Assembly (NCBI RefSeq): GCF_018977255.1
Contig: NW_024704742.1
Coordinates: 125,738,001-125,802,000 of the forward strand
DNA length: 64,000 nucleotides
Direction: 5' to 3'
From: Callorhinchus milii
Lineage: Eukaryota
Each line of letters opens with the position of its first letter. Position 1 is the first letter of the stretch. Positions 12,206 to 62,030 of this stretch are shown in pieces. Made by a program: the position numbers and the translations under genes. The notes beneath the pieces were generated by a model, which worked only from the letters and a program-made list of their open reading frames with translations, did not search any database and had not been told where the DNA came from.

Positions 12206-15200
12206 ATAGAACCGTAATCCAGTAGAAGAAAAAGTAAGTCAAACACCTTCTGAAGAGGGATAGAAAGAAAAAATTCAGAGGAGGAGTGACCGGACTATTT
12301 ATTTGTTATAGGTTTAGGTACAGGAGCCTTGAGGACAAAAACAGTTTTGAGGTCACATATAAACAGGTAAGCAAAGTATTGTAATATAGCGGCTTTGATC
12401 TGGATACATAAGTAGGTCATGATTTAAATCAGATATAACCATGATAATCAGAAAGATAGTGAGTCTCACAATCATTCTCATTTCCTTTACCAGAATCATA
12501 CAAGTTCTGCATTTGTTTGCTCGGGTATTCTCTATTACAACAATAATAACTTAGATTTATATAGCGCTCTTCACACAGGTAGTATCTAGGAGCATTTAAC
12601 ATTGGTGGAGCTTGATGCCGAGCCAGAGAGAGAAGGGAGGTGACCTTAGGCATGGTCAAAGAGGAAGGTTTGCAGATCCGATCTGAACAGTACTCTGTAT
12701 AGTATAATACAATACAATCTGCCTAAGTTATATATTTCTTTACTCTTTATCAAACTACTAATTTCTAAGTTTGGTAAGTATAGATTTTTCAGTCCCACAT
12801 TACTATCATTGCGGGTACTTCTGGATAGTTCCTGTCCAGCCAGAAAAGAAGTGTGAAAAATAAAGAAGGTGGAGGAAGTCAGACAAGATAAAGAGTAGCC
12901 CAGATTTGTTTGTCTGTGTTGGTGACCTGTCGATCAAATCAGAGATATGGGGAAAGGTAATTAATTGAAACTGAATAGATTCTTTTTCGAAAAGCCAGCA
13001 CAACAGGATGGGAATGGTAGTTGGAGGTTTATGGCATGCTTTTATGTTGTGTGTGCATGTCTTGTATGTGTGTGTTCAAACAATTTAATTTGGGATCTTT
13101 TGCTATTTAACATTTTTGGAGCAAATCCTATTGTGCAAACTGAACAGCTTGTTTTTTTTTACTGTTTATGTACACCTTCTATGTCAATGTGTGAGTCTTT
13201 CCAGTTATAATGGTTCCCCTTATCTCTGCTCCGTGCTATTTGGGAGTCGATGTTTAAGGAACCACATAGTGTTATATTTACAGACTCAAAATTCCATCTA
13301 GTTCTCGGCTCTAAGAATATTTTCTCTTAACATTTAATATACTGCAGAATTATGAAGACATGTTAAATTTACTTTAAAACTGAATCTTCGGATAATTATG
13401 GGTAAACCAGGTGTATATGTATACTTAATTCATTTTCCACAAAGAACCTAATAGTCTTAATCAATATCTGCAATTAAAAAAGACTTGCAGCGATATGGCC
13501 TCCTCTTCCTTTTGCCACTTAATTAAACATATTTTTGCCAGTCTATTCCTTAAGTGTGAGTGACATAGAGTCACTGTACTTAACAAAAACCGACAATGCC
13601 CGAAATGCACAATAGGTTGATCACCATCTGGATTTAGCACGGGATCCATTTCAATTATTTCTTTTTGAGGCCTGTTGTTCATCGGTCGCTATACAGTTGC
13701 TTGGAGAATCATGGTTTTCCTATACACAGTGGTTAAAGGGAAAATAGCATGTCCTGGTTTTGCTTACTTTAAGTGAGGCTTGTCATTGCTTGTGATGGGT
13801 AAAATCTTGTGGTTCTTTATTTTTAATTGAAGAGCTTTGATGGACAGCCAAGGTGAGGAACACCACAGAAATTCAAAAGGTAGGAAAGAAAACAAGGAGA
13901 ACAATAATAACTTGTGTATAGCTCTCTTTGTGTAAGATAACATCTCAGAGTACTTTACAGTTACATGGTTGGATGCAGAGCAATAGAGAAGGGAGTGGTG
14001 AAGGTGGAGGTGATGCTGGTGTGGTTAAAGAGGTAGGATTAAGGCAGCATGGACAGAGAGTTAGATGGAAGGGTAAAGGAAAGGAGTTCTGGAGGTTAGG
14101 GCCATGGTTGTTGAAGGTTGGCCATCGATGATGGTGCAGAGACAGGTCAGGGGTGTGTGCAACAAATGAGAGTTAGTTAAGCAAAGGGGAACAGCAGAGG
14201 AGTGGGGTAAGAGAAAATCACAGGCATAGGGAAGTACTAGAATGTGAAGGGATTTATAAATGAATATGAAGTCGATCGACAAATTTTGGGATGTTCTCCT
14301 GACACAAAAGAACTTATTATAAATGTAAATTGAATTGTAAGTGAAGGAATTACAGTTTGGTGATGCCAAGCTCAAGATATTAAAATTACACATTGTAGAA
14401 GAAAGGAAAGATGGATGCATGTAAGGGCTTCAATAGTTATTAAAGTCATGAAAAGAATACATTGGAGATGGTGGAATGAGTTTGGATAACGACATAAGGA
14501 TACGGGAAAGAGGATAACTATATTGTTTGTTTGGCACTTGATAGGAACAAAAAAGAGGAATGTTCAGAATGTTGAGTTTTCATAGGTTCATTGATTAAAC
14601 TCAGAAAGATAGTGTAAAAATGTGTTCCATTCCTGTCTTCAACTTATTAAGTGCAAGGAAATTGTATTTCATTTTCACCTTCTAAATATTTGCGGGCCAA
14701 ATTACAATGATAAAGTTTTGATAATGGCAGATCTGGCTCAACTGACTCCTCATCCCCCAGTGGAGCGATTTCAAAATCCTTATTCTGAAGTTCAAATCAC
14801 TCCTCAGTCTTGCCCTACCCTTCCTTTGCAGCTTCCTTCAGCCACACTGATTAGACTATTCCCTTTGCTCACAGACCACTGGTCTGCTTCATGTGCCCCA
14901 CCATATCCGCCCCACCATTGGCGGGCGAGCTTTCAGCCACTCTGGCCTTCCATCTCAGAGTCCCTCCAACTCGCTCCTTGGCCCATCTCAAAATGTACCT
15001 CTTTGACTGCATTTTTCCCCACCCTCCTCTCCTCCCACCCCCAACTCTGTAGATCTAACGAAATTGTCAAGTGCTTTGAGATATCCTTCTGATATGAAAG
15101 GAGCTAAATAGGTGTAAATTGTATCGTATCTTCTGATTAATATTCTCCTGTATAGTTCTAGCTCTGAGAAATTTGAGTAATCATTCGCAAAGGTCATACA

Positions 15201-33559: not shown

Positions 33560-36500
33560 AGCAGAGAGCCCAGCAGCGTGAGGAGGAAACTGAATGAGAT
33601 GGAACACAGTGAGAATTTTGTTAAGGAATTTGGTGAGAGTGGGAATTTGGTGCAGAGGGGGAAAGAAGTACATAATTATAAAATATATAATAGTTATATT
33701 AAAATAATATACAATATGTCTGGGAATGTGGCAGAGCAGCTAAGACCACTTGCAGGTACAATGTGTGCTGTGTGGGAACTCCAGGATGCTTTGGGTGCCC
33801 TGGACAGACACGTGTGTAGGAAGTGCCTCCGGCTGTTCAAGCTTGAGCTCAGGGTTTCTGAGCTTGAGGTGAGGCTGGTGTCACTACATAGCATATGGGA
33901 GGCTGAAGAGTTCATGGATCAAATGTTTAATGACGTGATCATCCCACAGCCACAGAGGGTTCAGAAGGAGAGTGAGTGGGTGACCACCTGACATGGTAGG
34001 AAGAGGGGACAGGCAGCGCAGAAATTCACTGAGAGTGTGGCACTCACAAATCGGTTCTCTATACCGAATTCCGGGCAGGGTGATGACACCTCTGGGGAGG
34101 GGAGTCAAAAGCAAATGGATGCACAGGGGGAGAGAGGGAAGAGTGTCAATGTAATTGTTATTGGCGACACAATGGTGAAAGGAGTAGACAGACATTTCTG
34201 GAACTCAAAAAAAAATGACTCTCGCATGGTATATTGCCTTCTTCATGCCAGGGTTGAAGACATCATGGAACGGGCACAAACATTCCACAGGGGGAAAGGA
34301 AACATCTAGAAGTCGTGGTCCATGTAGTGATCCATGACGCAGAGAAAAAAAGGCTGAGATCCTACAGGGAGAGTATCAGAAGCTAGGGAAAAAGCTAAAG
34401 AGTAGGACCTCAATGGTGGTGATCATTGGATTACTCCCTGTGCCTTGTGCAAGTGAGTATCAACATAGCAGGATCAAACACATGAATGCATAATAATAAT
34501 AATAGTAATCCTTGCATTTGATATAGTGCCTTTCACGTCGGGAGGACGTCCCAAAGCGCTTCGCAGAACACACTGTAAAGTGAATTGACTGTATATTTGT
34601 GGGCGAACGCAGCAGCCAATTGCGCATAGCAATGTCCCACAAACAGTCGTGGATTGAAAATGACCAATTTATTATTGTTTTTGGTTTTGGAGCGATTATT
34701 ATTAGGCTCTGTGTGGAGTAAGGAAACTTGTCTAAGGTTTCGCCCTCTGCCTGGAATTGAACTCAGGTCTCTCACTTGCAAAGCGGGTGCTCTAACCACT
34801 GAGCTACAGGACTCCACAATAGTTGGAGAAATGGTGCAGAAAGGAGGGCTTCAGGTTCCTGGATCATTAGGACCAGCTTTGGGGCAGGTGGGACCTGTAT
34901 AAGGAGGATGGGTTACACCTGAACAGAGCTGTGACCAATATCCTCACAGGGAGATTAACTGGTGCTGTGGGAATTTTGAGGGGGGAAGGGAATCAGGATG
35001 TAGCATTGGAGAGGAAAACAAGTTATATAGAAGGCTGGGAGAGTAGCAATGTAGTAAAGAGAAATGCAGAGCAGATTCAGTCGGTCTTGGAGTGTGTAAA
35101 TGCACAGAGTGTGACAAATAGGATTGGTGAGCTGCAGGTTCAAGTTGCCACATGGGGTTATGATGTAATGGCAATGACGGAGACCTGGCTCAAACAAGGG
35201 TAGGAATGGGAGCTGAGTATTCCTGGCTACAATGTATTCAGGAGGGATAGGGAAGAAAAAAAAGGAGGGCGTGGCAATATTGATTAAAGACACAGTTATG
35301 GCCCGGGAAAGGAATGATGTGCTAGAGGATCCAAGAATTTGGTTAGAGTTAAGGAGCGGAAAAGGAGCTGTTACTTTGTTAGGTGTAGGCTATAGACCAC
35401 CAAATAGTGGGAAGGAGATAGATGAGCAAATATGCAAACAAATTTCAGAAAGATTCAAAACCAATAGAGTTGTGATAATGGGGGACTTCAATCATCCTAA
35501 CATAGACTGGCAAAATAACAGCATAAAAGGCAAGGAGGGGAAGGATTCCTGAAATGTGTGCAGGATAACTTTCTGGATCAGTATGTTTCCAGCCCAATGA
35601 GAAAGGAAGCAGTGCTGGATCTAGTTCTGGGGAATAAAGTGGGCCAAGTGGAGCAGGTTTCAGTAGGAGAGCAGCTGGACAACAATGATCACAACATCAT
35701 TAGGTTTAGAGTACTTATGGAAAGGTTACATGGAACAATCAAGATGAAGATACTCAACTGGAAGAGAAATGTAATCAATTAATTAAAAAGGGATCTAGCC
35801 AAGGTGCACTGGAAAGAAAGATTGGCAGGTAAAACAGCTAAGAAGCAATGGGAAGCCTTCAAGGAGGAAATAGTTCAGGGACAGAACAAATACATTCCCA
35901 CAAAGGGGAAAGATAGGGCATCCAAGCACCCCTGGACGAATAAGGAAATTGAGATTAAAATAAAACAGAGAAAGGAGGCTGATGATAAATATCATGTCCA
36001 AAATACAGAAGATAATCAAATAGAATATAGAAAATACAGAGAAGAACTGAAAAAGGAAATAAGAGGGGCAAAGAGATTTTATGAGAAAAGATTAGCAGGC
36101 AACATAAAAGGGAACCCTGAGATATTTTATAAGCACATAAAGAAGAAAAGGTTAGTCAAAGGTAGGGTGGGTCCAATTAGGGACTAAAGAATAAATCTCC
36201 TTATGGAGCAGAGGGCATGGATGAATACATTGCATCTGCCTTCACAAAAGAAGAGGATGCAGCCAATGCCCAATATCGGAGGAGAGGGTAGAGAAATTGA
36301 ATACGATAAGAATAAACCGAGAGGAGGTACTAAAAAGGTTATCAGTGCTCAAGGTAGATAAGTCACCCGGTCCAGATGGGATGCATCCCAGTTTACTGAG
36401 GGAAGGATGGAAATAACGGTGGCTCTGGCCACAATCTTTCAATCCTCCTTGGACACCGGGGTGGTGCCAGAGGACTGGAGGATTGCAAATGTTACTCCCC

Positions 36501-37600
36501 TGTACAAAAAGGGACAGACGGATAACCCGGGAACAACAGGCCAGTCAGTCGAACATCAGTATTGGGGAAACTTCTAGAGAGGGTGGATGAAGGTAGTGCA
36601 GTTGATGTAGTTTGATAAAGTGGTCAGTATTGGAACCACTGCTGTTTTTGATCTATATAAATGACCTGGACTTGGGTATGGGGAGTACAATTTCCAAGTT
36701 AGCAGATAATACCAAGCTAGGAAAACTAGTAAACAATGACAAGGAATAGTAGCAGACTGAAAGAGGACATAGACAGACTGGTAAAATGGGCAGACAAGTG
36801 GCAGATGAAGTTCAGTGTGGAGAAATGCAAAATGATGCATTTTGGGAGGAAGAATGAGGAGAGGCAATATAAGCCGATGGTAGAATCTTAAAGGGGTGAA
36901 GGAACAGAGAGGACCTGGAGGTTCATATAAGTAAGTATTTGAAGGTGGCAGGACAGGTGGATAAAGCTGTTAAAAAAAGCATATGGGATACTAGGTTTTA
37001 TAAATAGGGGCATAGAATACAAAAGTCAGGAAGTTATGATGAACCTTTATAAAACACTAGTTAGGCGTCAGCTAAAATACTGTGTTCAGTTCTGGGTACC
37101 ACACTTTAGGAAGGATGTCATGGCATTGGAAAGGATGCAAAGGAGATTTACCAGGATGGTACCAGGAATGAGGAACTTCAGTTATCAGGAGAGATTAGGC
37201 AAGCTGGGATTATTCTCCTTGGAGCAGAGGTTAAGGGGAGACTTAAGAGCAGTTTTCAAAATTATGAGGGGATTCGATAGGGTGAACAAGGAGAAATTAT
37301 TTCCACTGGTGGGTGAGTCGGTAACCTGAGGACACCAATTTAGAATAGTTAGTAAAAGAAACAGGGTAGGTGAAGAGAAATTTTTTCACACAGCGAGTTG
37401 TTCGGTTCTGGAATGCGTTGCCTGAAGGGGTGGTGGAAGTCGATTCGATATCAATTAATAGAGAAGTAGATAATTATTTGGGGGGACAAGTTTGCAGGGC
37501 TATGGGGAGAGAGTGGGGGAGTGGGATTGATTTGGGTAGCTGTTTTCGAAGAGCTGGCACAGACATGATGGGCCGAATGGCCTCCTTCTGTGCCTGTATA
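33560..37600 (+). mobile_element. Near full-length CR1 LINE (ORF1 and ORF2), decayed
   Basis: ORF1 has a Cys-rich motif (CAVWEL...HVCRKC), a coiled coil and SGNH-esterase motifs (VIGDTMVKG; DGLHLN near 34906-34925). ORF2 has endonuclease motifs (MTETWL, YRPP, MGDFNHP, LDLVL) and a C-terminus (LYKTLVR, QFWVPH, RNFFTQRVV). The RT carries deletions near 36580-36640. Confidence 0.93.
34491..34815 (-). mobile_element. Young SINE inserted in CR1 ORF1
   Basis: Near-identical reverse complement of 28643-28960. Confidence 0.92.
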
Positions 37601-39750
37601 ATTAAAAAGAAAAAAAGATATGTGCTCGTATTCAGCATTACGTACTCTGTTTGTATCCAGAGTGGTGGTTGTAAAACCATGGATGTGTTTGATCAGTCAT
37701 GCAACAATACGAGAATGTTTCGACTGATAACGGTGATTAAAGGTATTTCAGCAGATTTATGAAGTATGAAAAATGTGCGACGAGTGCGTCACGCACCATA
37801 GTGTGGAAAATCATGAGGAAGAAAATCATGCAAAAGAAGCTTTGATGGATAGAATATTTCATGCAGTTATTCATATTTTGATTAAAATTAAAGGCACTGA
37901 AAATCAACAATCTATGAAACCTATTTACAGTTTTTTTTGGTCAAACAGTTTTAGAGTTACAGCTTATTTTGTTCAAAATATTCAAAGTATCATGTATAAC
38001 TTTTAGTCTGTAAATCATTACTCTCTTTGGTTTTGAATTTGAATCAATTATTTCTGTATTCAAATGTAATGGTCCATTGCTTTCATTTGAAGAGCATTTG
38101 CCAATTTATTATCTTATAATAATATAATAATCCTTACATTTGATAAGGTGACTTTCACGTCATTGAAATGTCTCAAAGGGCTTCGCTTCACAGGATATTC
38201 TGTAAAGTGGATTGACTGTGTATTTTGAGGGTGAAACGTGGTAGCCAGTTGCGCACATCAGTGTTCCACAAACAGTCATTGGGTGAGTGACCAATTTTAT
38301 TTTGGGGAATTGGTGGCCAGGACTCTTCATCAACTATGGTTCCATTATCTAAGCAGCTTTATTGATCAACCTTAAATGTCAGTTCCCTATAGAAGTGAAG
38401 TAAAGAAATTAACTTATACTCCCCACCTTGAGGAATATTAGTTCAATTCACAGATGATACATATATGAAAAATCTTTGCTGTGGCTGTTGAACACTATGA
38501 TGCAATGATGGAATTTTGCACTGAAACATGACATGGATTGTGAAGCTGTCTTGCGGGTCAAGGTGTGCAGTTCATGCCAGTGATCAAGACACCAGCGTTT
38601 TCACTGTAAACAAATCACTAGAAACGAACCATCTTTAGCAATGTCAGCCTAGTTCAGCTGTTAGCACTCTCGCCTCCAGGCACGAAAGTTGTGGTTTCAA
38701 GGCCTACACTGGGACAGTGAATTCAAAGACTCGCCTGACTATGTCATAGAACACAGTAGGACAGAATCCACTAAATTTCAATATTCTTCTTCAATTACTA
38801 AGATAGTGGATATAATAATGTTAAAATAAATCCACTATTTGAAACAATGGAAATCCCTTACAATCGTATTACCATTACAGAAAAAAATCCTGGCAATTAC
38901 CAAAACATTGTTTTATTGAAATGTTTTTGAAAATGTTTAAATGTTCCTTTACATCTTACTAACACTGCTTCAACATACAGAGTGAACTAATTTAGCCCAT
39001 TAAATCTTTATGACCACTCATTACAGTTGTGGCAATGGGGAACATTAGATTGGTGTTGAGTGAGATGTGGGCAGCAATCAGCTGCCAACACTCAGCCAGT
39101 GTTCCATAACCCACAAGCAGCTCCATCTAGTGGCTCAATCACAGAAATGAAATTTGTCAGAATTTGGTTGGCTGATCTTATTGTTATTGCACAAGATCAC
39201 AACATCAGTTTGGATGAGGAAGGTAGTTCAGCCTGTCTAACCTCATCCTTCCAGAATACCCACCTCATCGTTCTCCCATCTCAGCATCAACCTACTTTTT
39301 GTAAATGAATCCAGTGTTATGGAACCCTGATCCAGTCATTAATTACCATCTGGGCAAAGAAAAACTTCCTGGTATTTGTCCTGAAATTACCATTTGCAAC
39401 TATAAACCCATGTCCTCTTGTTCAATGCAAAGCACTCTCATACCTGAAAGTTCAGATTTGTTACTGATAATAATCCATTTTGCTCTTTACTTCCTTTGAC
39501 TGCTTTTGTCTCAGTTAAGACAGCAAGTACTGTTTCAAAATTACTGGGTCTTAAATTACCAGAAGTGCCAAAACTGTTGAGCTCATAACATTTATGAGTC
39601 GAAAACCTCAAAGGAGGTCATATAGATCTTGCACTTCTGGTGTAACTTCTTTTTCTGAAAAGTCAAAACTAGTATCTAACTAAAATGTTACTAGTGACAG
39701 TGTTGAGAATACTGTTCAAGCAGCACTGTTTGCTATTCAGCAGACGATGA

Positions 39751-43619: not shown

Positions 43620-44801
43620 CAGCCAAGGAAATTCAAGGAGATACTGGACTTCCTCGAATTTAAATCGAGGGGATATGTTCAGCTACCTCAGCCCTGTCCA
43701 CAGCCACCCCCACCTCACCTCTCCCTCATGACCCACCCCCCACCCATCCCCCTCTATACTCCTTCGACCTTATCTCTCCCTCCTCCCTCACCACGACTGT
43801 CCGCAACCTCAAACCCACCACCTGCTCCCTCGATCCCATCCCCATGTCTCTCCTCGTCACCCAGCTCCAACTTGTGGCCCCTCTCCTGTCCCATGTCATC
43901 AACCTTTCCTTGTCCACTGGTTCAGTTCCCACCCCCCTAAACACAGCTGTCATCAACCCCATCTTGAAAAAACCTTCCCTGGATCCATCCCTCCTCTCCA
44001 GCTACCGCCCCATCTCTAAACTCAAATTCCTCTCCAAGGTCCTGGAATGAGTCATCGCATCCCAGCTCCGTTCCTTTTTCTCTCGCCATTCCCTCTTTGA
44101 ACCCCTCCAATCCGGCTTCCGCAATGCCCACAGCACGGAAACAGCCCTGGTCAAAGTCATTAATGACATTCTGAACATCTGTGATGAGAGCTCCCTCTGC
44201 CTTCTTGTCCTCTCTGCCGCCTTCGACACTGTCGACCACTCCATCTTCATACACCGCCTTTCCGTTTTACTCAATCTTCACGGATCTGCCCTTGCCTAGT
44301 TCAATTCCTATCTCTCTCACCATCTCCACTTCATTGCCTCTAACAGTTTCTCCTCCAGCCCCTGAATTGTCACATATGGCATCCCCCAGGGCTCTGTCCT
44401 TGGTCCTCTCATCTTTAATATCTACATGCTCCCCCTTGGTGACATCATCCGCAGTCATGGGGTCAACTTCCATGTGTATGCAGATGACGCCCACTCTATC
44501 TTTCTGCCTTCACTCTCAACTCCAGGACCACTGCTGTCCTGACAGACTGCCTGTCGGACATCAAGTCCTGGATGAGGTCAAATTTCCTATAGTTGAATGT
44601 GAACAAGACTGAGGCCCTCCTGATTGGCTCGCGCCAGCGCCTCAGCACCTCATGCTCTGACAGCATCAACCTCCATGGTTGCACACTACTACTCACCAAG
44701 CCAGTCAGGAACCTTGGTGTCTTGTTCGACCCTCAACTGTCTTTTCTACCCCACATTCAAGCCAAGACCCGCTCTGCCTTCCCTCACCTCTGTAACATTG
44801 C
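43620..44801 (+). mobile_element. L2 ORF2 (RT) fragment, interrupted at 44801 and resuming at 46506-46545
   Basis: YRPISKLKFLSKVLE, TATGCAGATGAC (YADD) and RNLGVLFD. L2 sequence resumes as ATCGCCCGACTCCGCC at 46506. Confidence 0.9.
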
Positions 44802-46505
44802 AGATGAATGTCAATGTGGAGAAATGCGAGAAATCCCTCTGAACACTAACACTATCTAGTCTCTCCCCCTCTAGAAGACAATCTGCTTTTCTGTTTTTAC
44901 TAGCTAGGGGAATAGCTTCACACTTCCCCACATTATATGCCATTTGCCACCTTCTTGCCCACTCACCTAGCCTATCTATATCCCTTTGCAATCTTTTTGT
45001 GTCATCCTCAGAATTTACTCTCCCACCTAGCTTAGTATCATCCACGCATTTAGATATTTAAAGTTCTATGTTCTCGTCTAGATCATTGATATAAATTGTA
45101 AATATAACCTTGTGAATTTCCTTTGCACCCTCTCCAGTGCCTCTACATCCCTCCTACAATGTGGGGACCAGAACTGCACACAGTATTCTTTCGCCCACAA
45201 ATATAAGGTCAATTCACTTTACGGTCTATTGTGTGAAGCGCTTTGAGACGTCTAGAAGACGTGAAGAGCGCTATATCAAATGCAAAGATTATTATTATTA
45301 TTAAGTGTGGTCTAACCAAGATTCTACAAAAGTTTACCATAACTTCCGTGCTTTTCATTTCTATCCCTCTAGAAATGAATCCCAATGCCTGGTTTGCCTT
45401 TTTTATGGCCTTATTAACCTGGGTTGCTACTTTTAGTGAATTGTGTATGTCTATCCCTAGATTCCTTTGCTCCTCTACCCCATTTAGGTTTTTATTTTCC
45501 AGGATGCATACGACTTCTTTATTCCTTCTACCAAAATGTACCACCTCACATTTTTCTACATTTGAAATGCATTTGCCATTTAAATGTCCATTCAGCACGT
45601 TTATTAATGACTTACTGTAATTTGTTGCAGTCCTCCTCTATACTATAATCCGGGACAGAATAAATCTTCAATTAGAAGAATATGGGTTAATTAGGGACAG
45701 CAAGCACAGATTTGTTAAAGGCAAATCTTTTCTAACAAATCTAATAGAATTTTTCAATGAGGGGGTAAAATAACTGAGAGACCTGGGGGTTCAGGTAAAT
45801 GAATCCTTGAAGGCGGCAGGACAGGTAGATAAAGCTGTGAAAAGGGCGTATGGGATACCAGACTTTATAAATAGGGGCGTAGAGTACAAGAGTCAGGAGG
45901 TTATGATTAACCTATAGAAAACACTGGTTGCCTAATATTGCCTAATATTCAGTTAGAATATTACGTCCAGTTCTGGGCACCACACTATTGGAAGGATGTT
46001 AAGGCATTGAAAAGGTTGCAGAGGAGATTTACAATGATGGTACCAGGAATGAGAGACCTTGATTATGAGGAAAGGCTACAGAGGTTAGGATTATTCTCAT
46101 TGGAGCAGAGAAAGTTACGAAGAGACCTAATAGAGGTCTTCAAAATTATGAGGCAGTTTGATAGGTTAGAAAGGGAAAAACTGTTTCCACTGGTGGGTGT
46201 GTCGGTGACTCGAGGTCACAGATTTAAAATAGTCTCTAAAAGAAGCAGAGGGGAGGTGAGAAGAAATTTTTTCATGCAGAGAATTGTTTGAATCTGGAAC
46301 GTATTGCCTGAAAGGGTGTCGAGGCCGTTTCGATAACTACTTTTAAAAACGCGGTGGACGGGTGTTTGAGGAGGACGGGTTTACAGGGTTATGGGGAAAG
46401 GGTTGGGGAGTGGGATTGACTTTACATTGCTCTTTTCAAAGAGCTGGCACAAAGTCGATGGGCCAAATGGCCTCTTTTTGTGCTGTATGATTCTATGATT
46501 CTATG
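44802..46505 (+). mobile_element. Composite insertion copying the 59221-61263 nested CR1/SINE stack
   Basis: Colinear with 59221-61263 except for a 353-bp deletion. Ends in an (ATTCTATG)n CR1 tail and is flanked by ATTGC and ATCGC. Confidence 0.88.
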
Positions 46506-46970
46506 ATCGCCCGACTCCGCCATTACTTCACCCCTCAGGCTGCTGGAAAATTGTGATTTTAATGTATATTTAAAACCAAGGGATGAGTGTGCAACTGTCA
46601 CTAAACACAAAAGGTTAGATTTGCCCTCTGATTCATTGTGTAAGAAGAACTAGGTGAGCCTCTGATTAATATTTTTTAGGATCTCTGTAAACACTGGAGA
46701 TATAAACATAACAATAGAACAATCATTACATTTGGTATAGAGATGTGTCACACTGTCAAAATATCTCGAAGTACTTCACAGGATTGATTGCGTAATGATT
46801 ATATATTTTCTTGGCATGTGCGGCAAGCAATTTTTGCACAGTGATGTTCCACCAACAGCCATGAAGTGACTGAATTTTTTTTTAATCTGGGGTACTGTTG
46901 ACCAGTACACTGGGGGAAACTCCATTCTCTTTTCAAATAGTGCCATGGGATGCTGAAAGTCCACTTGAAA

Positions 46971-47662
46971 TCCATAACATCGCCAACTCCGCCACTCCTC
47001 TCAAGCCCCCAGGCCACTGAAACTCTTGTTCATGCCTTCATCACCTCCAGGCTCGACTATGCAAATGCCCTGCTTGTCGGCCTTCCCAACTCCTCCCTCC
47101 ACAGGCTGTAGATAATCCAGAACTCTGCAGCCCGTGTCCTCTCCCGCACCAAACTCTGTGACCCCATCTCCCCCACTCTCGTCCATCTCCATTGGCTCCC
47201 AATCTTTCAGAGGATCCAGTTCAAGATCCTGGTCCTTACCTACAAAACCCTCATGGCCTCGCCCCACCCTACCTCTGCGATCTCTTAACCCCCTACCAAC
47301 CCATCCGTTCCCTCCGCATCCTGCTCCACATTCCCCGACCCTCCCTCCGTTCAGCCGGCTCTGGCCTGCTCCAAGTCCCCCGACCCACCCACTCCCCCAT
47401 TGGTGGAAGAGCCTTCAGCCATTCTGTCCCCAACCTCTGGAATTCCATCCCCCAGTCACTCCGTCTCGCTCCCTCCTTAGCCTCCTTCAAGTCTGCCTCA
47501 AGATCCTCCTCTTTGACCATGCTATCGGCCACCTTCCTTCCTCTCCCCTCCCTTCTCTCCCCCTGATCCCAGCTCGGATCTGAAATGCTGTGCACTGTCC
47601 AGCGCCTTGGGATGTCCTCTTGATGTGAAAGGCGCTTTACAAGTGTAATCTTGTTGTTGTTG
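46971..47662 (+). mobile_element. L2 3' fragment
   Basis: SRLDYANALL...GGRAFSHSVPNLWNS and a (TTG)n tail. Confidence 0.88.
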
Positions 47663-47991
47663 ATAACTATAGCTTTCTCCTATAACAAAATGCAAGGATA
47701 CTGATGGTAATATGAGGTAACCTTGCTGAGTTCAGCTAAATTAGCATAGACTGAGGTTTGAACCTGGGATCTGTAACAACAATATTTTTTTTCTTTTCAT
47801 GTATATATACAATTCCCTTTTGAAAGTTCTTATTGAAGCTGCTTCCACCACCCTTTCAGGCAGTGCATTCCAGTTCTTAATATCTCCCACGTTCTAATAA
47901 CTCTCTGTGTGAAAAAGATTCTTCATTTCCCCCTCCCTCTTAAATCTGACAGTGACATTCTTGAACTAAGGTGCCTTTATTATCCATTTGT

Positions 47992-48828: not shown

Positions 48829-49793
48829 AACAACAACAAGATTACATTTGTATAGCGCCCTTCACGTCGGGAGGACGTCCCAAGAAACTGGACAGTGTAC
48901 AGCATTTCAAACCCGAGCTGGGATCAGGGGGGAGAAGGGAGGGGAGGGGAAGGGGGATGGCTGATGGAATGATCGAAGAGGAGGGTTTTGAGGCGGGACT
49001 TGTAGGAGGCTAAGGAGGGGGCGAGGCGCAGTGACTGGGGGATGGAATTCCAGAGGTTGTGGGCAGAGTGGCTGAAGGCTCTCCCGCCAATGGTGGGGCA
49101 GATGGGTCGGGAGATGTGGAGCAGGCCGGAGCCGGCTGAGCGGAGGGAACGGGCGGGTTGGTAGGGGGTTAGGAGATCGCGGAGCTAGGGTGGGGCGAGG
49201 CTATGGTGGGCTTTGTAGGTGAGGACCAGGATCTTGAACTGGATCCTCTGAAGGATAGGGAGCCAATGGAGACGGGCGAGAGTGGGGGAGATGGGGTCAC
49301 AGAGTTTGGTGCAGGAGAGGTCACGGGCTGCAGAGTTCTGGATTATCTGCAGCCTGTGGAGGAAGGAGTTGGGAAGGCCGATAAGCAGGGCGTTTGCACA
49401 GTCGAGCCTGGAGGCGATGAAGGCATGAAGAGTTTCAGCAGCCTGACGGGTGAGGTAGTGGCAGAGTCGGGCGATGTTACGGAGGTGGGGAAGGCAGAGC
49501 TGGTCATGGCTTGAATGTGGGGGAGAAAAGATTGTTGAGGGTCGAACAAGACACCTAGGTTGCTGACTTGCTTGGTGAGTTGTAGTGTGCAACCATGGAG
49601 GTTGATGCTGCCAGAGCCTGAGGTGCTGAGGCGCTGGTGCGAGGCAATCAGGAGGGCCTCAGTCTTGTTCACATTCAACTATAGGAAATTTGCCCTCATC
49701 CAGGACTTGATGTTCAACAGGCAGTCTGTCAGGACAGCAGTGGACCTGGAGTTGAGGGTCGAGGCAGAAAGATAGAGTTGGGTGTCATCCGCA
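48829..49793 (-). mobile_element. L2 3' fragment
   Basis: ORFs 49185-49592 and 49343-49678 (KTEALLI, NLGVLFD, LHWLP) and a (CAA)n tail. Confidence 0.9.
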
Positions 49794-53589: not shown

Positions 53590-53995
53590 ATTTACATTAG
53601 AATACATTAGAATATGCAGCACAGAAACAGGCCATTCGACCCAACTGGTTTTTGCCGGTGTTTATGCTCCACATGAGCCTCCTCCTGCCCTTCCTCAACT
53701 AAGCCTTCAAGCATAACCTTCTATTCCTTTTTCCCTCATGTACCTATCCAGCTTCTCTTAATACATCTATGCTATTTACCTCAACAACTCCTTGTGGTAG
53801 CATGTTCCACATTCCCACTACTCTCTGTGTGAAGAAATTTCTGCTCACTTCCCTCTTTGATCTATTTGTGACTATTTCATATTGATGCCCCCTGGTTTTG
53901 GTCTCCCCCACAAGTGGAAACATCTTCCCTTTGTCTACCCTATCAAAACCTTTCATCATTTTAAAGACCTCTATCAGGGCACCCCTTACCCCCTT
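53590..53995 (-). mobile_element. CR1 3' fragment
   Basis: ORF 53744-54100 (LIEVFKMMKGFDRV...RNFFTQRVV) and a tail reading (TACATTAGAA)n on +. Confidence 0.88.
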
Positions 53996-56274: not shown

Positions 56275-56347
56275 ATGAGCAACGCACGAGTGACACACAG
56301 CATCTCCACCATCTACCTGCTCCTCCTCTGCTGCCAGGTGCACCCAG
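56275..56347 (+). CDS. Probable first coding exon (signal peptide) of an unidentified secreted or membrane protein
   Basis: CAACATG with A at -3. Encodes MSNARVTHSISTIYLLLLCCQVHP plus 1 nt, with a hydrophobic core and C/G-rich third positions. Ends at a CAG|GTAAAG phase-1 donor. No in-frame exon 2 found in the window. Confidence 0.65.
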
Positions 56348-58835
56348 GTAAAGCCTCCAGATCTGGGTTAGGAGGAGGGGAGGGTAGGATGGGGAGGGAG
56401 GAGGAGGAGGAGGGGGGGTAGAGATTGTTATTTAACTGTCTTTGGTCGATACAAGTCATCCCACCAAAGCAGCCTCTCAGCCACATCAGCCTCACGTTTG
56501 CTCTGCGAACCCATCTGTTCTGAGATGGTACGAGTTTAAAGCGAAACAACCGGTGGATCAACGCCTCCTACACGATGGTGGAGATTTTTTTTTTTTTTTT
56601 GGGGGGGTGAGAAATATGTATTTTTTGGGGTATATTAAATGCAACAATGCGCGTTTTTTTTTTTGTAGCTCTTAGCCTTGCATTTCTCTCCCCCATCCTC
56701 CTCCTCCTCCTCCTCCCTCTCGTGTTACTGACTCACCGACAATTCACCTTTGCTGCAGAGAAACATGTCCTTGATACGTGACAAAGCAACACTGGCCAGA
56801 AACCTGCCCAGCACATGGGGAGCCAACATGTTCCTGAAGGTTTCATCAAAAGTGGATAGAACGGATTGTTATTATAGTGGAAAAGAATCCAGCAATAAAG
56901 ATGGTTAATAATAATAATAATAATAATCCTTGCATTTGATATAGCCCGTTATCACGTCGTTGAGACGTCTCAAAGCGCTTCACAGGATATGTTGTAAAAA
57001 TGGATTGACTGTGGATAAGGGCTCTGGGGGAAAAGACAGATGAATGGCTTGAACCATTACTCTTTCAAAGAGTACCATACACAAAATGTCCCTCTCTGTG
57101 CTGCTTATTTTTGTGTTTCTTAACAGTTTGCCAGTACGTAAAGTGGTATGTTTTGACTGGCGCGAGATTATTTTTTATCCAAATGTGTAAGAATCCGCAG
57201 AATAATGGAAGTTTAAAAAAATGTACAGCGGAGACGGTGGTGGTGGTGGGGGGAGGGGGGGATTGAAATAATAATAATTACATTTTGTATTTGATATAGC
57301 ACCTTATCACGTGTTTGAAATGTCTCAAGGGCTTCACAGAATATGGTGTACATATATATAAAAAACAAAAAGAAAAAAAATATATATAGAATATATTGAA
57401 ATCTTACATGATCAAAATAATTAAACTTCTGTCGGGCAATGTCCCACAATATTTAAAGTCACCCTACGGTTTGCTTAAGTATGACACTGTCTCTGCCATA
57501 ACATGATTGTAAACATTACTTTGCTCTGTGTACGTGGCAGGATATAGCTTGATAACCACTTGGCACAATTCTTGCTCAACCCCAGTTACTAAATCATTTG
57601 ATGGTTTTCGACTTAGTTGTGTGCAGCTTTGCATTGCTGCTCAGTCTAGATTGTCACATCAGGATGGGCGTACATTATTTTCGCTCAGTTGGTAGCGCTA
57701 TCTTCTCTGCATCAGAAGGATGTGGGTTCAAGCCGGATGCCCGGATTTGCACTCATACTCCATGCTGATGCTCCAGTGCAGTATTGGGTGAGCACTGACT
57801 GCACTGTTTGGGTTGCTGTTTTTCAGGTGGCCTGTTCAGGTAGACATTAAAAGTAAACTCCTGATAACTCGTCACACGAAAGGAAAAGTTGAGCTGTGTT
57901 GCTTCATGCTGAGCTGTGTTGCCCACCAAGGAAGCTTGCAGGGAGTTCCTGGTATCTACCATCTACTTAGTGAGGGCTCAAACTCCCACGTGTCAGAGGT
58001 CAAATGACCAACTAGTGACTATCCTCCGTGGGGGGGAGGAAAGCGGGGTCTTCTTGGAGTTGAATTGGCTCCAAGGTGACATGTTTGGCAACAAGGTTGA
58101 GTGATCCCCCTGTAGGGGATTCAGTAGTCTGGTTCCTGAGACAGGCACATCCACAGCACTCCAGGGCTTTGCTGATGGTAGCATAGACAGCCTGGCTCAT
58201 CGGCAGGACTTGGAAAGGCAGACCAGTCACTTGAACCAGGGATTCTTCTCATTCAGCTCCTGTTAACTTTGCAAGCTAAATCCCCAATGGTCCTAGATGG
58301 ACAAACCATGGAAAGCTTGCCAGGCAGTGTGCTCAATAGCAAGCTATATGGTTTTAGCTGTTTAGACTCCCAACACACACTCCGGGGACGCCAAGCCTTG
58401 GCTCTTGCCAAACTGCACCTAATACTTTCTGGAATTAGGTAACCAGGATGTGTCCCTCTGGGGAGAGAGTGCACATTCCTTTCAAACAATTTATCTCTAG
58501 AATTTCCATGTGTAGATGCGATGCAAGGAATTCTCAGTTTGTGTTGGATATTCTTATTCTTAAGCATGGTGATGGGTTTCCGCATGTGGCAGACATCTGG
58601 CTGACCAAAAAGAAAGGGGAAAGGGCTCAGTGATGAGTTGTCCAGAGTGGCGAGTTAGGCATATGTATAAATATATAAATAAATACGGTTGGGGAATTGA
58701 CAGGATGATGACTTAAGTAATAGCGACAAGTTAAGCCAGGGTCGAGTTATCAGGAGTTTCCTATATATCATTACAATATTGAAAAGAGAAGGTCAATAAT
58801 TCTACAGATAAATTGGTTATTCACTTTATGGCCAC

Positions 58836-61800
58836 TTAGAATACATTAAAATATACAGCACAGAAACAGGCCATTCAGCCCAACTGGTCTATGCTGGTGT
58901 TTATGCTCCACATGAGCCTCCTCCTGCTCTTCCTCAACTAAACTTTCAAGCGTACATAGGAACATAGGAATTAGGAGCGAGAGTAGGCCATTCTAGTAAA
59001 TCTATGTTGCAACCCCTCCAAGGCAAGTATGTCATTTCTTAAATAAGGAGACCAAAACTGCACACAATATTCTAGGTGCGGTCTCACCAAGGCCCTACAC
59101 AGTTGCAGCAAGACTTTCCTACTCTAAACCTTTGCAATAAACGACAACATGGCATTAGCCTTCCTAGTTGCTTGCTGTACCTGCATACTACCTTTTTGTG
59201 ACTGGTGTACAAGGACACCCAAATCCCTCTGAACACTAACGCTATCTAGTCTCTCCCCCTCTAGAAAATAATCTGCTTTTCTGTTTTTACTAGCTAGGGG
59301 AATAACTTCACACTTCTCCACATTATATGCCATCTGCCACCTTCTTGCCCACTCACCTAGCCTATCTATATCCCTTTGCAATCTTTTTGTGTCATCCTCA
59401 GAGTTTACTCTCCCACCTAGCTTAGTATCACCCGTGAATTTAGATATTTTAAGTTCTATGTCCTCATCTAGATCATTGATATAGATTGTAAATATAACCT
59501 TCTATTCCTTTCTTCCTCATGTACCTATCTAGCTTTCCCTTAAATATATCTATGCTATTTGCCTTCAACAACTCCTTGTGGTAGCATATTCCACATTCCC
59601 TTTACACTCTGTGTGAAGAAATTTCTTCTAACTTCCCTATTTGATGTATTTGTGACTATTTTATATTGATGGCCCCTGGTTTTGGCCTCCCCCATAAGTG
59701 GAAACATCTTCCTTATGTCTACCCTATCAAAACTTTTCATAATTTTATAGACCTCTATCAGGGCACCCCTTACCCTCCTCTTTTCAAGAGAAAAGAGTCC
59801 AAGCATGTTCAGCCTTTCCTGACAGGTATAACCTCTCAGGTCTGGGATCTCCTTGTGAATTTTCTTTGCACCCTCTCCAGTGCCTCTACATCCCTCCTAT
59901 AAGTGGGGACCAGAACTGCACACAGTATTCTTTCGCCCACAAATATAAGGTCAATTCACTTTGCAGTCTATTGTGTGAAGCGCTTTGAGACGTCTAGAAG
60001 ACATGAAAAGCGCTATATCAAATGCAAAGATTATTATTATTATTAAGTGTGGTCTAACCAAGGTTCTACAAAAGTTTACCATAACTTCCCTGCTTTTCAT
60101 TTCTATCCCTCTAGAAATGAATCCCAATGTCTGGTTTGCCTTTTTTATGGCCTTATTAACCTGGGTTGCTACTTTTAGTGAATTGTGTATGTCTATCCCT
60201 AGATTCCTTTGCTCCTCTACCCCATTTAGGTTTTTATTTTCCAGGATGCATACGACTTCTTTATTCCTTCTACCAAAATGTACCACCTCACATTTTTCTA
60301 CATTTGAAATGCATTTGCCATTTAAATGTCCATTCAGCACGTTTATTAATGACTTACTGTAATTTGTTGCAGTCCTCCTCTATACTATAATCCGGGACAG
60401 AATAAATCTTCAATTAGAAGAATATGGGTTAATTAGGGACAGCAAGCACAGATTTGTTAAAGGCAAATCTTTTCTAACAAATCTAATAGAATTTTTCAAT
60501 GAGGGGGTAAAATAACTGAGAGACCTGGGGGTTCAGGTAAATGAATCCTTGAAGGCGGCAGGACAGGTAGATAAAGCTGTGAAAAGGGCGTATGGGATAC
60601 CAGACTTTATAAATAGGGGCATAGAGTACAAGAGTCAGGAGGTTATGATTAACCTATAGAAAACACTGGTTGCCTAATATTGCCTAATATTCAGTTAGAA
60701 TATTACGCCCAATTCTGGGCACCACACTATAGGAAGGATGTTAAGGCATTGGAAAGGGTGCAGAGGAGATTTACGAGGATGGTACCAGGAATGATGGACC
60801 TTGATTATGAGGAAAGGCTACAGAGGTTAGGATTATTCTCATTGGAGCAGAGAAGGTTACGAAGAGACCTAATAGAGGTCTTCAAAATCATGAGGCGGTT
60901 TGATAGGTTAGAAAGGGAAAAACTGTTTCCACTGGTGGGTGTGTCGGTGACTCGAGGTCACAGATTTAAAATAGTCTCTAAAAGAAGCAGAGAGGAGGTG
61001 AGAAGAATTTTTTTCACACAGCGAGTTGTTCGAATCTGGAACGCATTGCCTGAAAGGGTGGTCGAGGCCGATTTGATAACAACTTTTAAAAACACGGTAG
61101 ATGGGTATTTGAGGAGGACGGATTTGCAGGATTATGGGGAAAGGGCTGGGCAGTGGGATTGATATTACATTGCTCATCTCAAAGAGCTGGCACAAACTCG
61201 ATGGGCCGAATGGCCTCTTTTTGTTCTGTATGATTGTATGATTCTATAATTCTATGATTCTATATTAACTACTCCGCCAATTTGGTGTCGTCTGCAAATT
61301 TTGAAATTGGCCTGCTGATTCCTGAGTCCAAATCATTAATGTATATTGTGAACAACAGTGGTCCCAATACCGATCCTTGTGGAACACCACTGCCCACCCC
61401 CTGCCAGTCTGAGTAACTACCCTTTACCCCTACTCTGTTTCTGTTTTATAGCCAGCTTGCTATCCATTCTGTTATTTTTTCCCTAACTCCACATGCTCTG
61501 ACCTTATTCATTAGTCTATTATGTGGTACCTTATCGAAAGCCTTTTGGAAATCTAAATGTATTACATCTACCACATTACCCTTGTCTAGTCTTTCTGTTA
61601 CCCCTTCAAAGAATTCAATAAAGTTGGTCAAGCATGACCTTCCTATTTGAAATCCGTGCTGACTATTCTTTATTATGTTTTCTGTTTCTAGATGTTTTTC
61701 AATTATCCCCTTCAGTAAGGATTCCATTGCTTTCCTACTACCAATGTTAAGCTGACAGGTCTGTAGTTCCCTGGGCTTGTTCTATCTCCCTTTTTAAATA

Positions 61801-62030
61801 TAAGCATAACATTAGCTATCCTCCAGTCCTCTGGTACTACTCCCTCTTCTAATGAGTTATTATATATGTGTAATAGTACCTCTGCTATCTCTTCCCTCGA
61901 TTCTCTTAATATACATGGATACAATCCATCTGGACCAGGGGTTTTATCCTCTCTGAGTTTCGTTAGTTTTTCGATTATCTCCCCTTTGTATCTTAAATGT
62001 ATTTATATTATTTTCAATCTCTTCTTCTAC
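58836..62030 (-). mobile_element. Host CR1 (RT plus 3' end) carrying three nested insertions
   Basis: Minus-strand ORFs 61712-61924, 61446-61727 (QHGF, LDFQKAFDKVPH), 59951-60340 and 59555-59806, with the tail at 58836. Nested inserts: CR1 (-) about 58954-59492, SINE 3' part (+) about 59930-60043, and CR1 (+) 60385-61263. Confidence 0.9.
60385..61263 (+). mobile_element. 5'-truncated CR1 inserted antisense in the host CR1
   Basis: ORF 60680-61162, an (ATTCTATG)-type tail, and TCTATA on both sides (60379-60384 and 61259-61264). Confidence 0.92.

Follow-up and report, generated by a model that had tools for sequence, protein, structure and literature searches.

The window, i.e. the whole 64,000-nucleotide stretch of Callorhinchus milii DNA that was analysed, contains a stack of nested CR1 and SINE elements in intron 1 of the embigin gene and a second, partial version of this stack in an L2 element. 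The features of the intronic stack are as follows:

56275..56347, plus strand: coding part of embigin exon 1, with the splice donor GT at 56348
58836..62030, minus strand (CR1-A): donor stack in embigin intron 1, a CR1-A interrupted by CR1-B, a SINE and CR1-C, recognised by reading frames and RVT_1 matches
58955-59493, minus strand: donor CR1-B, within CR1-A
59931-60045, plus strand: donor SINE, within CR1-A
60385-61263, plus strand: donor CR1-C, with TCTATA on both sides

The gene starting at 56275, which a preliminary description of this DNA had proposed, is real and lies on the plus strand, and the pre-mRNA of embigin intron 1 would cover the stack in the right orientation. Its first 25 residues are identical to those of protein P0053 (source name embigin isoform X2); no other part of this protein aligned significantly within the window. 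The CR1-A pieces at 58836-58954 and 59494-59775 are contiguous in a paralogue at 53597-53991. A Pfam scan covered 188 frames, of which 5 were repeat frames and 183 came from a set of 344 mostly non-repeat open frames; it yielded two RVT_1 matches, one of them above the cut-off, and one sub-threshold Cep192 match. Among the protein matches (24 and 28) no subfamily-level relative of CR1-C was present, the best showing 71-72% identity, and an exact-pattern scan of metagenome contigs gave 0 matches.

The second locus comprises the following features, in which "copy" and "donor" refer to the direction of duplication given below:

43636..44801, plus strand: left arm of the L2 that served as target, aligning to other L2 copies and containing RT-like frames
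44797..44801, plus strand: ATTGC, left copy of a probable 5-bp target-site duplication; L2 paralogues across the site read ...AACATCGCCCGACT
44800..44830, plus strand: sense CR1 ORF2 stub of ~30 nt, reading QMNVNVEKCE; not donor-derived, putative 5' remnant of a resident truncated CR1
44831..45103, minus strand: copied antisense CR1-B part (donor 59221-59493), with 15 differences in 277 columns over donor 59221-59501
45104..45642, minus strand: copied antisense CR1-A pieces (donor 59494-60384 minus a gap), interrupted by the SINE and ending in TCTATA, from alignment and frames
45108..45111, no strand: CCTT microhomology where the alignment jumps over donor 59502-59854 (353 bp)
45189..45303, plus strand: SINE 3' half with (ATT)n tail (donor 59931-60045), with many paralogues in the window
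45389..45878, no strand: 490-bp tract identical to donor 60131-60620 (0/490 differences)
45643..46250, plus strand: sense CR1-C of donor origin that retains the donor's internal deletion (~45761) and TTGCCTAATA tandem (45928-45947)
46251..46505, plus strand: CR1 3' end with its (ATTCTATG)n tail, differing from the donor by 11% and probably part of the resident CR1
46506..46548, plus strand: ATCGC, right copy of the duplication (46506-46510), and 43-nt right arm of the L2, 88% identical to 49475-49433

The duplication of 59221-61263 at 44831-46505, claimed in the preliminary description, was borne out by two aligned blocks: copy 44831-45111 against donor 59221-59501 with 94.7% identity and copy 45108-46507 against donor 59851-61250 with 96.2% identity. 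The offsets between donor and copy are 14390 and 14742-14743, which places the landing site 14.4-14.7 kb upstream of the donor, and the duplicate has a length of ~1.4-1.7 kb. Both loci share the nesting junctions that had been listed, namely the B/A junction AATATAACC, both SINE edges, the A/C junction and the TTGCCTAATA tandem. The copy was made from the stack at 59-61 kb. There the elements are in their native context, as had been proposed: CR1-B runs on to the left of 59221, CR1-A resumes past the CR1-C tail, and the TCTATA on both sides of CR1-C supports this. The copied CR1-C has in common with the donor non-family letters up to 46079 and a G-to-R change at donor 60863. The duplicated product is non-coding and probably neutral.

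Three features had been omitted from the preliminary description: a 353-bp gap in the copy, the CR1 stub at its 5' end and the uneven divergence along its length. The 353-bp stretch is present in the donor and in the donor's paralogue but missing from the copy, and the upstream flank carried along is therefore ~810 nt instead of the ~1.1 kb originally given. Splicing was ruled out as the origin of this gap, since no GT-AG was found at its edges in 5 registers on either strand. The gap may have arisen, bounded by microhomology, as the new copy was made; a later deletion is a possible alternative.

The copy splits the L2 cleanly, as had been stated, for both arms are contiguous in paralogous L2 copies in the alignment; L2 44479-44801, for example, matches 49793-49471 at 92%. 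The copy lies within a transposable element, and its donor can be identified on the same chromosome. The proposed 5-bp target-site duplication is in part upheld: ATTGC and ATCGC fit, and their length is in the range of CR1/L2 elements, whose target-site duplications peak at 3-5 bp in the accessible text of PMC4245944, but a 2-bp overlap (AT) is equally parsimonious. At its 3' end the copy stops in the (ATTCTATG)n tail, without homology past it. Homology extending beyond the tail had been named as a sign of duplication at the DNA level. This comparison was carried out and gave none: the best local scores of the ~500-nt flanks were 24 (right) and 20 (left), within the range of a shuffled control for the right flank (mean 20, maximum 30). 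The sequence ACTCCGCCA just beyond both tails was rejected as extended homology and regarded as a chance L2/CR1 overlap, with the flank score within the shuffled range. The absence of homology past the tail cannot exclude copying at the DNA level, because repair begun in a resident CR1 also ends at the tail.

The stub is a collinear piece of CR1 ORF2; between the left duplication copy and the CR1-B part it occupies 44802-44830. Its best match in the window is 26/31 to the CR1 at 36801; on this element (36.4-37.6 kb) the stub is positioned 65 nt upstream of the start of the CR1-C 3' segment. The stub motif stands 26 residues before RDLG in 19 of the 20 motif-bearing CR1 proteins (24 examined). 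The nearest relative of CR1-C in the window is matched equally well by the stub (26/31) and by CR1-C itself (103/124). The matches to the donor's own CR1-A (25/32) and CR1-B (22/31) are too poor for the age of the copy, and a fold-back origin from either donor motif was rejected. Polymerase-theta joining, suggested by a direct repeat of 7 nt that spans the 5' junction, was likewise dismissed, since 260 of 3000 random joins reach at least 7 nt.

Along the copy, the differences to the donor are, in order, 15/277, 9/276, 0/490, 13/372 and 27/240, with 64 substitutions in total. The identical run of 490 bp was reached in 0 of 100000 permutations and could be the result of a later gene conversion or an assembly effect. 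Interlocus gene conversion occurs between nearby direct repeats. An identical tract in a duplicate that is otherwise 3-11% diverged resembles its products, but an assembly effect may account for the tract as well. A change point of divergence lies at copy 46226-46276 (reached by 28 of 5000 permutations). The 3' end, i.e. the last of the five segments, is more diverged than the CR1-B part, i.e. the first (Fisher p=0.023; non-CpG p=0.016), and than all other non-identical non-CpG columns (p=1e-4; scan-corrected 318/100000). Differing CpG columns are not commoner there (6/24 versus 10/35 in the other non-identical segments).

Changes shared by donor and copy were compared in three ways, all of low power for the 3' end. 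Among the 34 family-letter rows listed within the copy, from which 3 minor variants were dropped, 12 of 27 non-family letters are shared as far as 46079 and 0 of 4 past it. With the outgroups in the window, shared private changes amount to 16/174 upstream and 2/59 in the 3' end; at conserved residues, 1 of 12 changes in the 3' end is shared. Of the changes in the 3' end, 9 are donor-derived, 15 copy-derived and 3 ambiguous (symmetry p=0.31), as polarised by other CR1 subfamilies, so that letters specific to the master could inflate the copy count; 4 of the 15 copy-derived changes were confirmed as private by family letters. The 3' stem-loop of the copy is intact (-17.9 kcal/mol). That of the present donor is weak (-10.5 kcal/mol versus -17.2 to -21.2 kcal/mol in the other three tails), which may be due to a change postdating the copy.

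In a search for sequencing runs that contain this DNA, the best shares were 0.28-0.35 and no RNA run was among the 24 listed. The contigs of 4 of these runs were compared at a likeness of 85%, and the outcome was dominated by paralogues. The listing covered 32 pieces, none of which spans the whole insert, together with 15 joints out of 970 and 40 variant rows out of 301. One contig from another sample (X2 record 32, 46479-46900) crosses the junction of tail and L2, with 27-29 letters on the tail side, which is below the 31-letter rule. The joint 45188 to 45302, seen in contigs of 4/4 runs, marks SINE-free relatives of CR1-A. The joint 44799 to 46509 (4/4 runs) was not counted as an empty allele, being indistinguishable from intact L2 paralogues. 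Missing copy-private letters at some sites were likewise not counted, since contigs drop variants.

The 1.7-kb stack was probably copied during repair of a break inside a resident CR1, with a nearby homologous CR1 as template. The stub and the diverged tail suggest that such a resident may have predated the duplication. It would have been an ordinary CR1 of the CR1-C subfamily, truncated at its 5' end to ~840 nt and inserted in the L2 at 44.8 kb. Its sequence would have begun at the WQMxxNVEKCE codons, and the tail, the 5-bp duplication and the 5' stub would all stem from it. A double-strand break in the germ line near its 5' end would then have undergone one-sided repair. The right end would have invaded the homologous CR1-C 14.7 kb away, overwriting the resident leftward from ~46250. 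Synthesis would have continued beyond the homology, across the internal deletion of the donor and then CR1-A, the SINE and CR1-B; 353 bp would have been left out at CCTT, and the process would have halted at donor 59221. The left end, the ~30-nt stub, would have been end-joined without a partner, because the donor CR1-C lacks that stretch. Later gene conversion between the two direct repeats may finally have produced the 490-bp identical tract. The hallmarks of retrotransposition are explained equally well by the earlier, ordinary insertion of a CR1 at 45 kb. Some points speak against copying by repair: no allele or relative bearing a plain CR1 at this position was seen, differing CpG columns are not enriched in the 3' end, the uneven divergence could also stem from repeated conversion of a single old copy, and the donor is located within a sense pre-mRNA, as a mechanism based on RNA needs. 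Moreover, ~1.4 kb were copied over a distance of 14.4 kb, and the proximal class of repair-made duplications comprises, in the accessible text of PMC2671141, segments of <=619 bp with a donor less than 5 kb away.

The preliminary description had instead inferred that a CR1 reverse transcriptase was primed in trans at the dead CR1-C tail in embigin pre-mRNA. With the features found here, the enzyme would have copied ~2 kb with a 353-nt jump, added a scrap of CR1 at the 5' end and inserted the product 14.4 kb away, and later conversions would have homogenised all but the tail end. The direction, the end at the tail, the duplication within the 3-5 bp peak and the strand of the donor in intron 1 all stand, the donor-derived and copy-derived changes in the 3' end do not depart significantly from symmetry, and extra nucleotides at the 5' end occur, according to the available part of PMC2666801, at ~40% of L2-type inserts. 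Nevertheless, this mechanism is not the best fit and appears improbable: a single RNA event does not predict a collinear stub, a tail end that is 2-3 times more diverged or a local landing site, for which it gives no reason. Extra nucleotides are, in the available part of PMC4245944, mostly derived from the flank, whereas the stub is a collinear piece of ORF2. Later conversion could account for the uneven divergence, but additional conversions are then needed for a tail 2-3 times older. The weak stem-loop of the present donor is also unfavourable, even if it may have arisen after the copy. No mark of RNA was found: the gap is not GT-AG, and the substitutions from donor to copy show no editing skew (A>G 15 versus G>A 14, T>C 9 versus C>T 10), which is possible for an unspliced RNA as well. 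The enzyme may also have started on the RNA of an active CR1 and switched by homology to embigin pre-mRNA near 46250; after copying the stack upstream, it would have returned to a CR1 RNA for the final 30 nt. A single event would then yield the tail and the duplication as well as the stub and a 3' end of independent origin, with the embigin RNA in the right orientation, but we see only a small chance for this course, which needs two or three switches in addition to a local landing site. It also predicts a young 3' end of the copy with ~6 copy-derived and 21 donor-derived changes, and the observed 15 and 9 differ from this expectation (p=3e-5), with the reservation that the outgroups are other subfamilies and may inflate the copy count. 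On the whole, it is unlikely that a tail-specific CR1 enzyme acting on nascent embigin pre-mRNA, whether primed at the tail or switched by homology, wrote intron sequence back ~14 kb away.

Repair from several templates (MMBIR/FoSTeS or chimeric SDSA) would do without a resident CR1, taking filler from some CR1 and then switching to the donor. For repair-made duplications, Table 1 of PMC2671141 lists short duplications, acceptors of chimeric make-up and fillers 1-68 nt long, and template switches across 7-32 kb are described in the accessible part of PMC4888836. The end at the tail would then be due to chance, however, and this exact end and the collinear stub would be two coincidences; with the diverged 3' end left unexplained as well, such a course is very improbable. 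There is just as slight a prospect that the copy belongs to a composite mobile family with its master elsewhere or is an assembly artefact. The identical tract could be an effect of assembly or polishing, and the window contains four single Ns, but misassembly is unlikely to make 64 substitutions and a clean split of the L2. The native context of the donor marks it as the source, against a master elsewhere. The residual contig depth in X1 was 10-43 at 6 of 12 letters private to donor and copy (single-copy ~18-22), and a high-copy family would be expected to be far deeper at every site, a weak argument in that depth is no copy number.

Copying by repair has counterparts in other animals. The repair-mediated duplications of Pace et al. 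2009 (PMC2671141, accessible text), known in vertebrates including zebrafish and chicken, likewise lie inside transposable elements, have a nearby donor on the same chromosome, this proximity being one of their marks, and possess breakpoints with microhomology, filler and sometimes a short duplication. The present duplicate is longer and lies farther from its donor than their proximal class; one of its ends would have used long homology between two CR1 copies, and its LINE tail and duplication would be inherited from the resident element. In duplication-dependent strand annealing, DDSA (Fiston-Lavier et al. 2007, as far as summarised in PMC3276153), a broken repeat is mended with a second copy as template, sequence next to that template is duplicated along with it, and a gap bounded by microhomology marks the new copy. 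In agreement with this, the copy has such a gap at CCTT, and one end of the duplicate lies in the CR1-C 3' end, which is homologous at both loci, with the change point near 46250. DDSA was described for larger segments in Drosophila, in contrast to a CR1 LINE in a cartilaginous fish whose resident state is deduced here. In 5' transduction by SVA/L1 (PMC3287187) and trans-mobilisation of SINEs via shared LINE tails (PMC3747384), upstream non-self sequence is also joined to a retroposon 3' end, with an end at the tail and a short duplication. The products described in the accessible parts of these papers are dispersed and stem from single transcripts, whereas the copy reported here landed nearby, its tail is older than its body, and it has a collinear CR1 stub and no mark of RNA processing. 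No paper title on 5' transduction from dead CR1 tails was found in a search that covered the subscription literature thinly.

If a reading based on RNA were true, every dead intronic CR1 tail would be a handle for local, RNA-templated duplication in genomes that are said to produce few retrocopies, and the stringent CR1 enzymes, which are thought to limit the formation of retrocopies (PMC5470649, accessible part), would be able to move host intron sequence locally. Most likely, the event is a known kind of repair accident and not a new route by which LINEs carry host DNA; in the best reading it was one neutral accident among dead repeats. A duplicate ending at a LINE tail and flanked by a target-site duplication is not necessarily a transduction: both features are inherited when repair starts within a LINE already present at the site. 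The signs to look for in such cases are a collinear 5' stub and a tail that is older than the rest of the copy.

The local duplication of dead repeats is real and probably a one-off event. In the window self-comparison, the copy at 45 kb matched the nested stack at 59–62 kb in two blocks (44831–45111 to 59221–59501, 94.7%; 45108–46507 to 59851–61250, 96.2%). All nesting junctions listed in the preliminary description, which involve CR1-A, CR1-B (antisense), a SINE and CR1-C (sense), were found at donor and copy alike. The proposed direction was also confirmed: 59–62 kb is the source, because CR1-B extends left of the stack and CR1-A picks up again past the CR1-C tail, and because an independent CR1-A relative (53713–53991) has a match to 353 bp that the copy lacks. 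This stretch (donor 59502–59854) was left out at a CCTT microhomology, and no GT-AG occurs at its edges in any register of either strand. As described before, the copy stops at the CR1 tail: no homology extends past it, and similarity ends at both borders. Donor and copy are free of N; four single N occur at 422, 17733, 18602 and 19166.

The gene at 56275 is embigin, as shown by 25 identical N-terminal residues and a phase-1 donor site. The matching protein is recorded under Callorhinchus milii, which suggests this chimaera, or a species close to it, as the origin of the window.

56275–56349, + strand, first coding exon of embigin (protein identity)

A GA-repeat-rich leader is located upstream of this exon. 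No further embigin exon was found within the window; exon 2 lies beyond 64000, and intron 1 exceeds 7.6 kb. With exon 1 at 56275 and no other exon in the window, intron 1 contains the donor, on the strand that is transcribed, as had been assumed.

At 45 kb, an L2 is indeed split, its arms being contiguous in paralogues. ATTGC (left) and ATCGC (right) had been taken as a plausible 5-bp target-site duplication, but a 2-bp overlap describes them equally well. The target L2 (44479–44801) has an inverted relative with 92% identity 5 kb downstream (49471–49793). Its right arm is left at 43 nt only (46506–46548), and a separate L2 piece (46971–47663) begins 420 nt further on at nearly the same L2-sequence position, possibly by coincidence. 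For 46581–46881, run X1 yielded two contigs of equal depth (8.8). One is the window sequence; the other has 20 different letters and 2 gaps, agrees with organism B in at least one position (46646), and is either a paralogue or an allele with strong divergence.

The 5' end of the copy adjoins a CR1 stub of about 30 nt (44800–44830), which does not derive from the donor. It is a sense piece of CR1 ORF2 (translation QMNVNVEKCE) with its top match within the window in the CR1 at 36801 (26/31), and the donor's own motifs reach only 25/32 (CR1-A) and 22/31 (CR1-B). The CR1 at 36801 is also closest to CR1-C (103/124, versus 68/122 for A and 68/123 for B). On the element at 36.4–37.6 kb, the stub ends 65 nt upstream of the point where CR1-C resumes beyond its own internal deletion. 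This large deletion (donor 60503–60504) joins the RT-domain start to the region just before RDLG and spans about residues 587 to 757 of the database protein P0002. CR1-C's closest relative in the window, at about 35090–37620, is a CR1 ORF2 close to full length; it includes endonuclease and RT parts and has several stretches deleted internally. P0001, P0002 and P0004 are CR1 reverse transcriptases that carry bacterial names and come from short contigs; the assemblies concerned probably contain vertebrate DNA. The database protein P0017 starts with about 100 residues of the CR1 ORF2 C-terminus, after which come an Ig-like domain and a membrane segment; it reflects either an error in the gene model or exonisation of a CR1.

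Differences between copy and donor are unevenly distributed over successive segments (15/277, 9/276, 0/490, 13/372, 27/240). The clean run of 490 bp was matched by 0 of 100000 permutations and calls for either a subsequent conversion or an effect of the assembly, whichever model applies. The 3' excess persists in non-CpG columns without the clean tract (p=1e-4; scan-corrected 318/100000), with a change point at copy 46226–46276 (28/5000 permutations). Family letters were obtained from contigs of four runs aligned to 44500–46900. Among 40 of the 301 variant rows, 34 lie inside the copy (19 copy-private, 12 common to donor and copy, 3 dropped as minor variants); in this low-power set the shared ones extend to 46079, beyond which 4 private and 0 shared ones follow. 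Relative to outgroups in the window, shared differences occupy 16/174 columns upstream and 2/59 in the 3' end (46251–46505), where conserved residues show one shared change in 12 positions; both comparisons have low power and mix private and subfamily letters. At 46354 (in 46290–46370), organism A had summed depths of 51711 and 60889 in two runs, and organism B 0 and 41 in two others. This hints, depth not being copy number, at an expansion of the CR1-C subfamily after the split of A and B; organism B would then be unable to show the resident-only state.

From this anatomy and these statistics we infer a resident CR1, a break and a conversion, and it is rather likely that one-sided repair at such a resident produced the copy. 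An ordinary truncated CR1 of about 840 nt, from stub to tail, would be the source of the tail and of the short duplication; target-site duplications of CR1 and L2 peak at 3–5 bp (PMC4245944, in excerpt). A break close to its 5' end would have left the left end without a partner, because the donor's CR1-C lacks the stub stretch, and the right end alone would be able to invade the donor. Synthesis would then continue beyond the homologous stretch into the neighbours that lie upstream in the donor, followed by non-homologous joining to the stub. This pathway would be DDSA, a form of synthesis-dependent strand annealing; a template jump during DDSA results in a microhomology-bounded gap in the new copy (PMC3276153, in excerpt). 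Across vertebrates, breaks within transposable elements are documented to capture nearby DNA (PMC2671141, in part). In the human cases given there, the donor was <5 kb away in 824/1136, and a poly(A) tail occurred at 0/39 proximal breakpoints examined versus 17/29 interchromosomal ones; compared to this proximal class, the copy at 45 kb is longer and its donor farther away. The CpG columns count against a resident CR1, since they differ no more commonly in the 3' end (6/24) than in the other non-identical segments (10/35).

An RNA origin is rather unlikely, even with all routes taken together. According to the preliminary description, a CR1 enzyme was primed in trans at the dead CR1-C tail of a read-through RNA. 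It is established that 3' ends are recognised stringently and that a shared tail allows trans-mobilisation (PMC3747384, PMC8665684 and PMC5470649, each in part), and the end at the tail, the short duplication and the strand of the pre-mRNA agree with this route. However, splice and editing marks are both absent from the copy, and additional 5' nucleotides of L2-type inserts derive mostly from flanks in the excerpted text of PMC4245944. Priming at the dead tail is quite improbable; moreover, no element of the model explains why the insertion is local, LINE insertions being dispersed in general. A template-switch chimera, to which we give the same low probability, accounts for stub and tail but expects a younger tail than observed. 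When the 27 tail-end differences were polarised by window outgroups, 15 fell to the copy and 9 to the donor, with 3 ambiguous. This 15:9 split speaks against an active master as the source of a young tail (p=3e-5, 6:21 expectation), with the reservation that these outgroups belong to other CR1 subfamilies. Multi-template repair without a resident is very improbable, and so is a composite family or artefact. A large composite family is unlikely, as residual depth in run X1 was 10–43, near single-copy, at 6/12 sites with letters private to both loci, although depth is not copy number. A single contig from another sample extends over the tail/L2 junction, slightly under the bridging threshold. 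Other explanations deserve hardly any weight.

Although its ends resemble those of a 5' transduction, the copy does not pass the test of a single template, and repeat-initiated repair duplication is the class that suits it best, as a new example.
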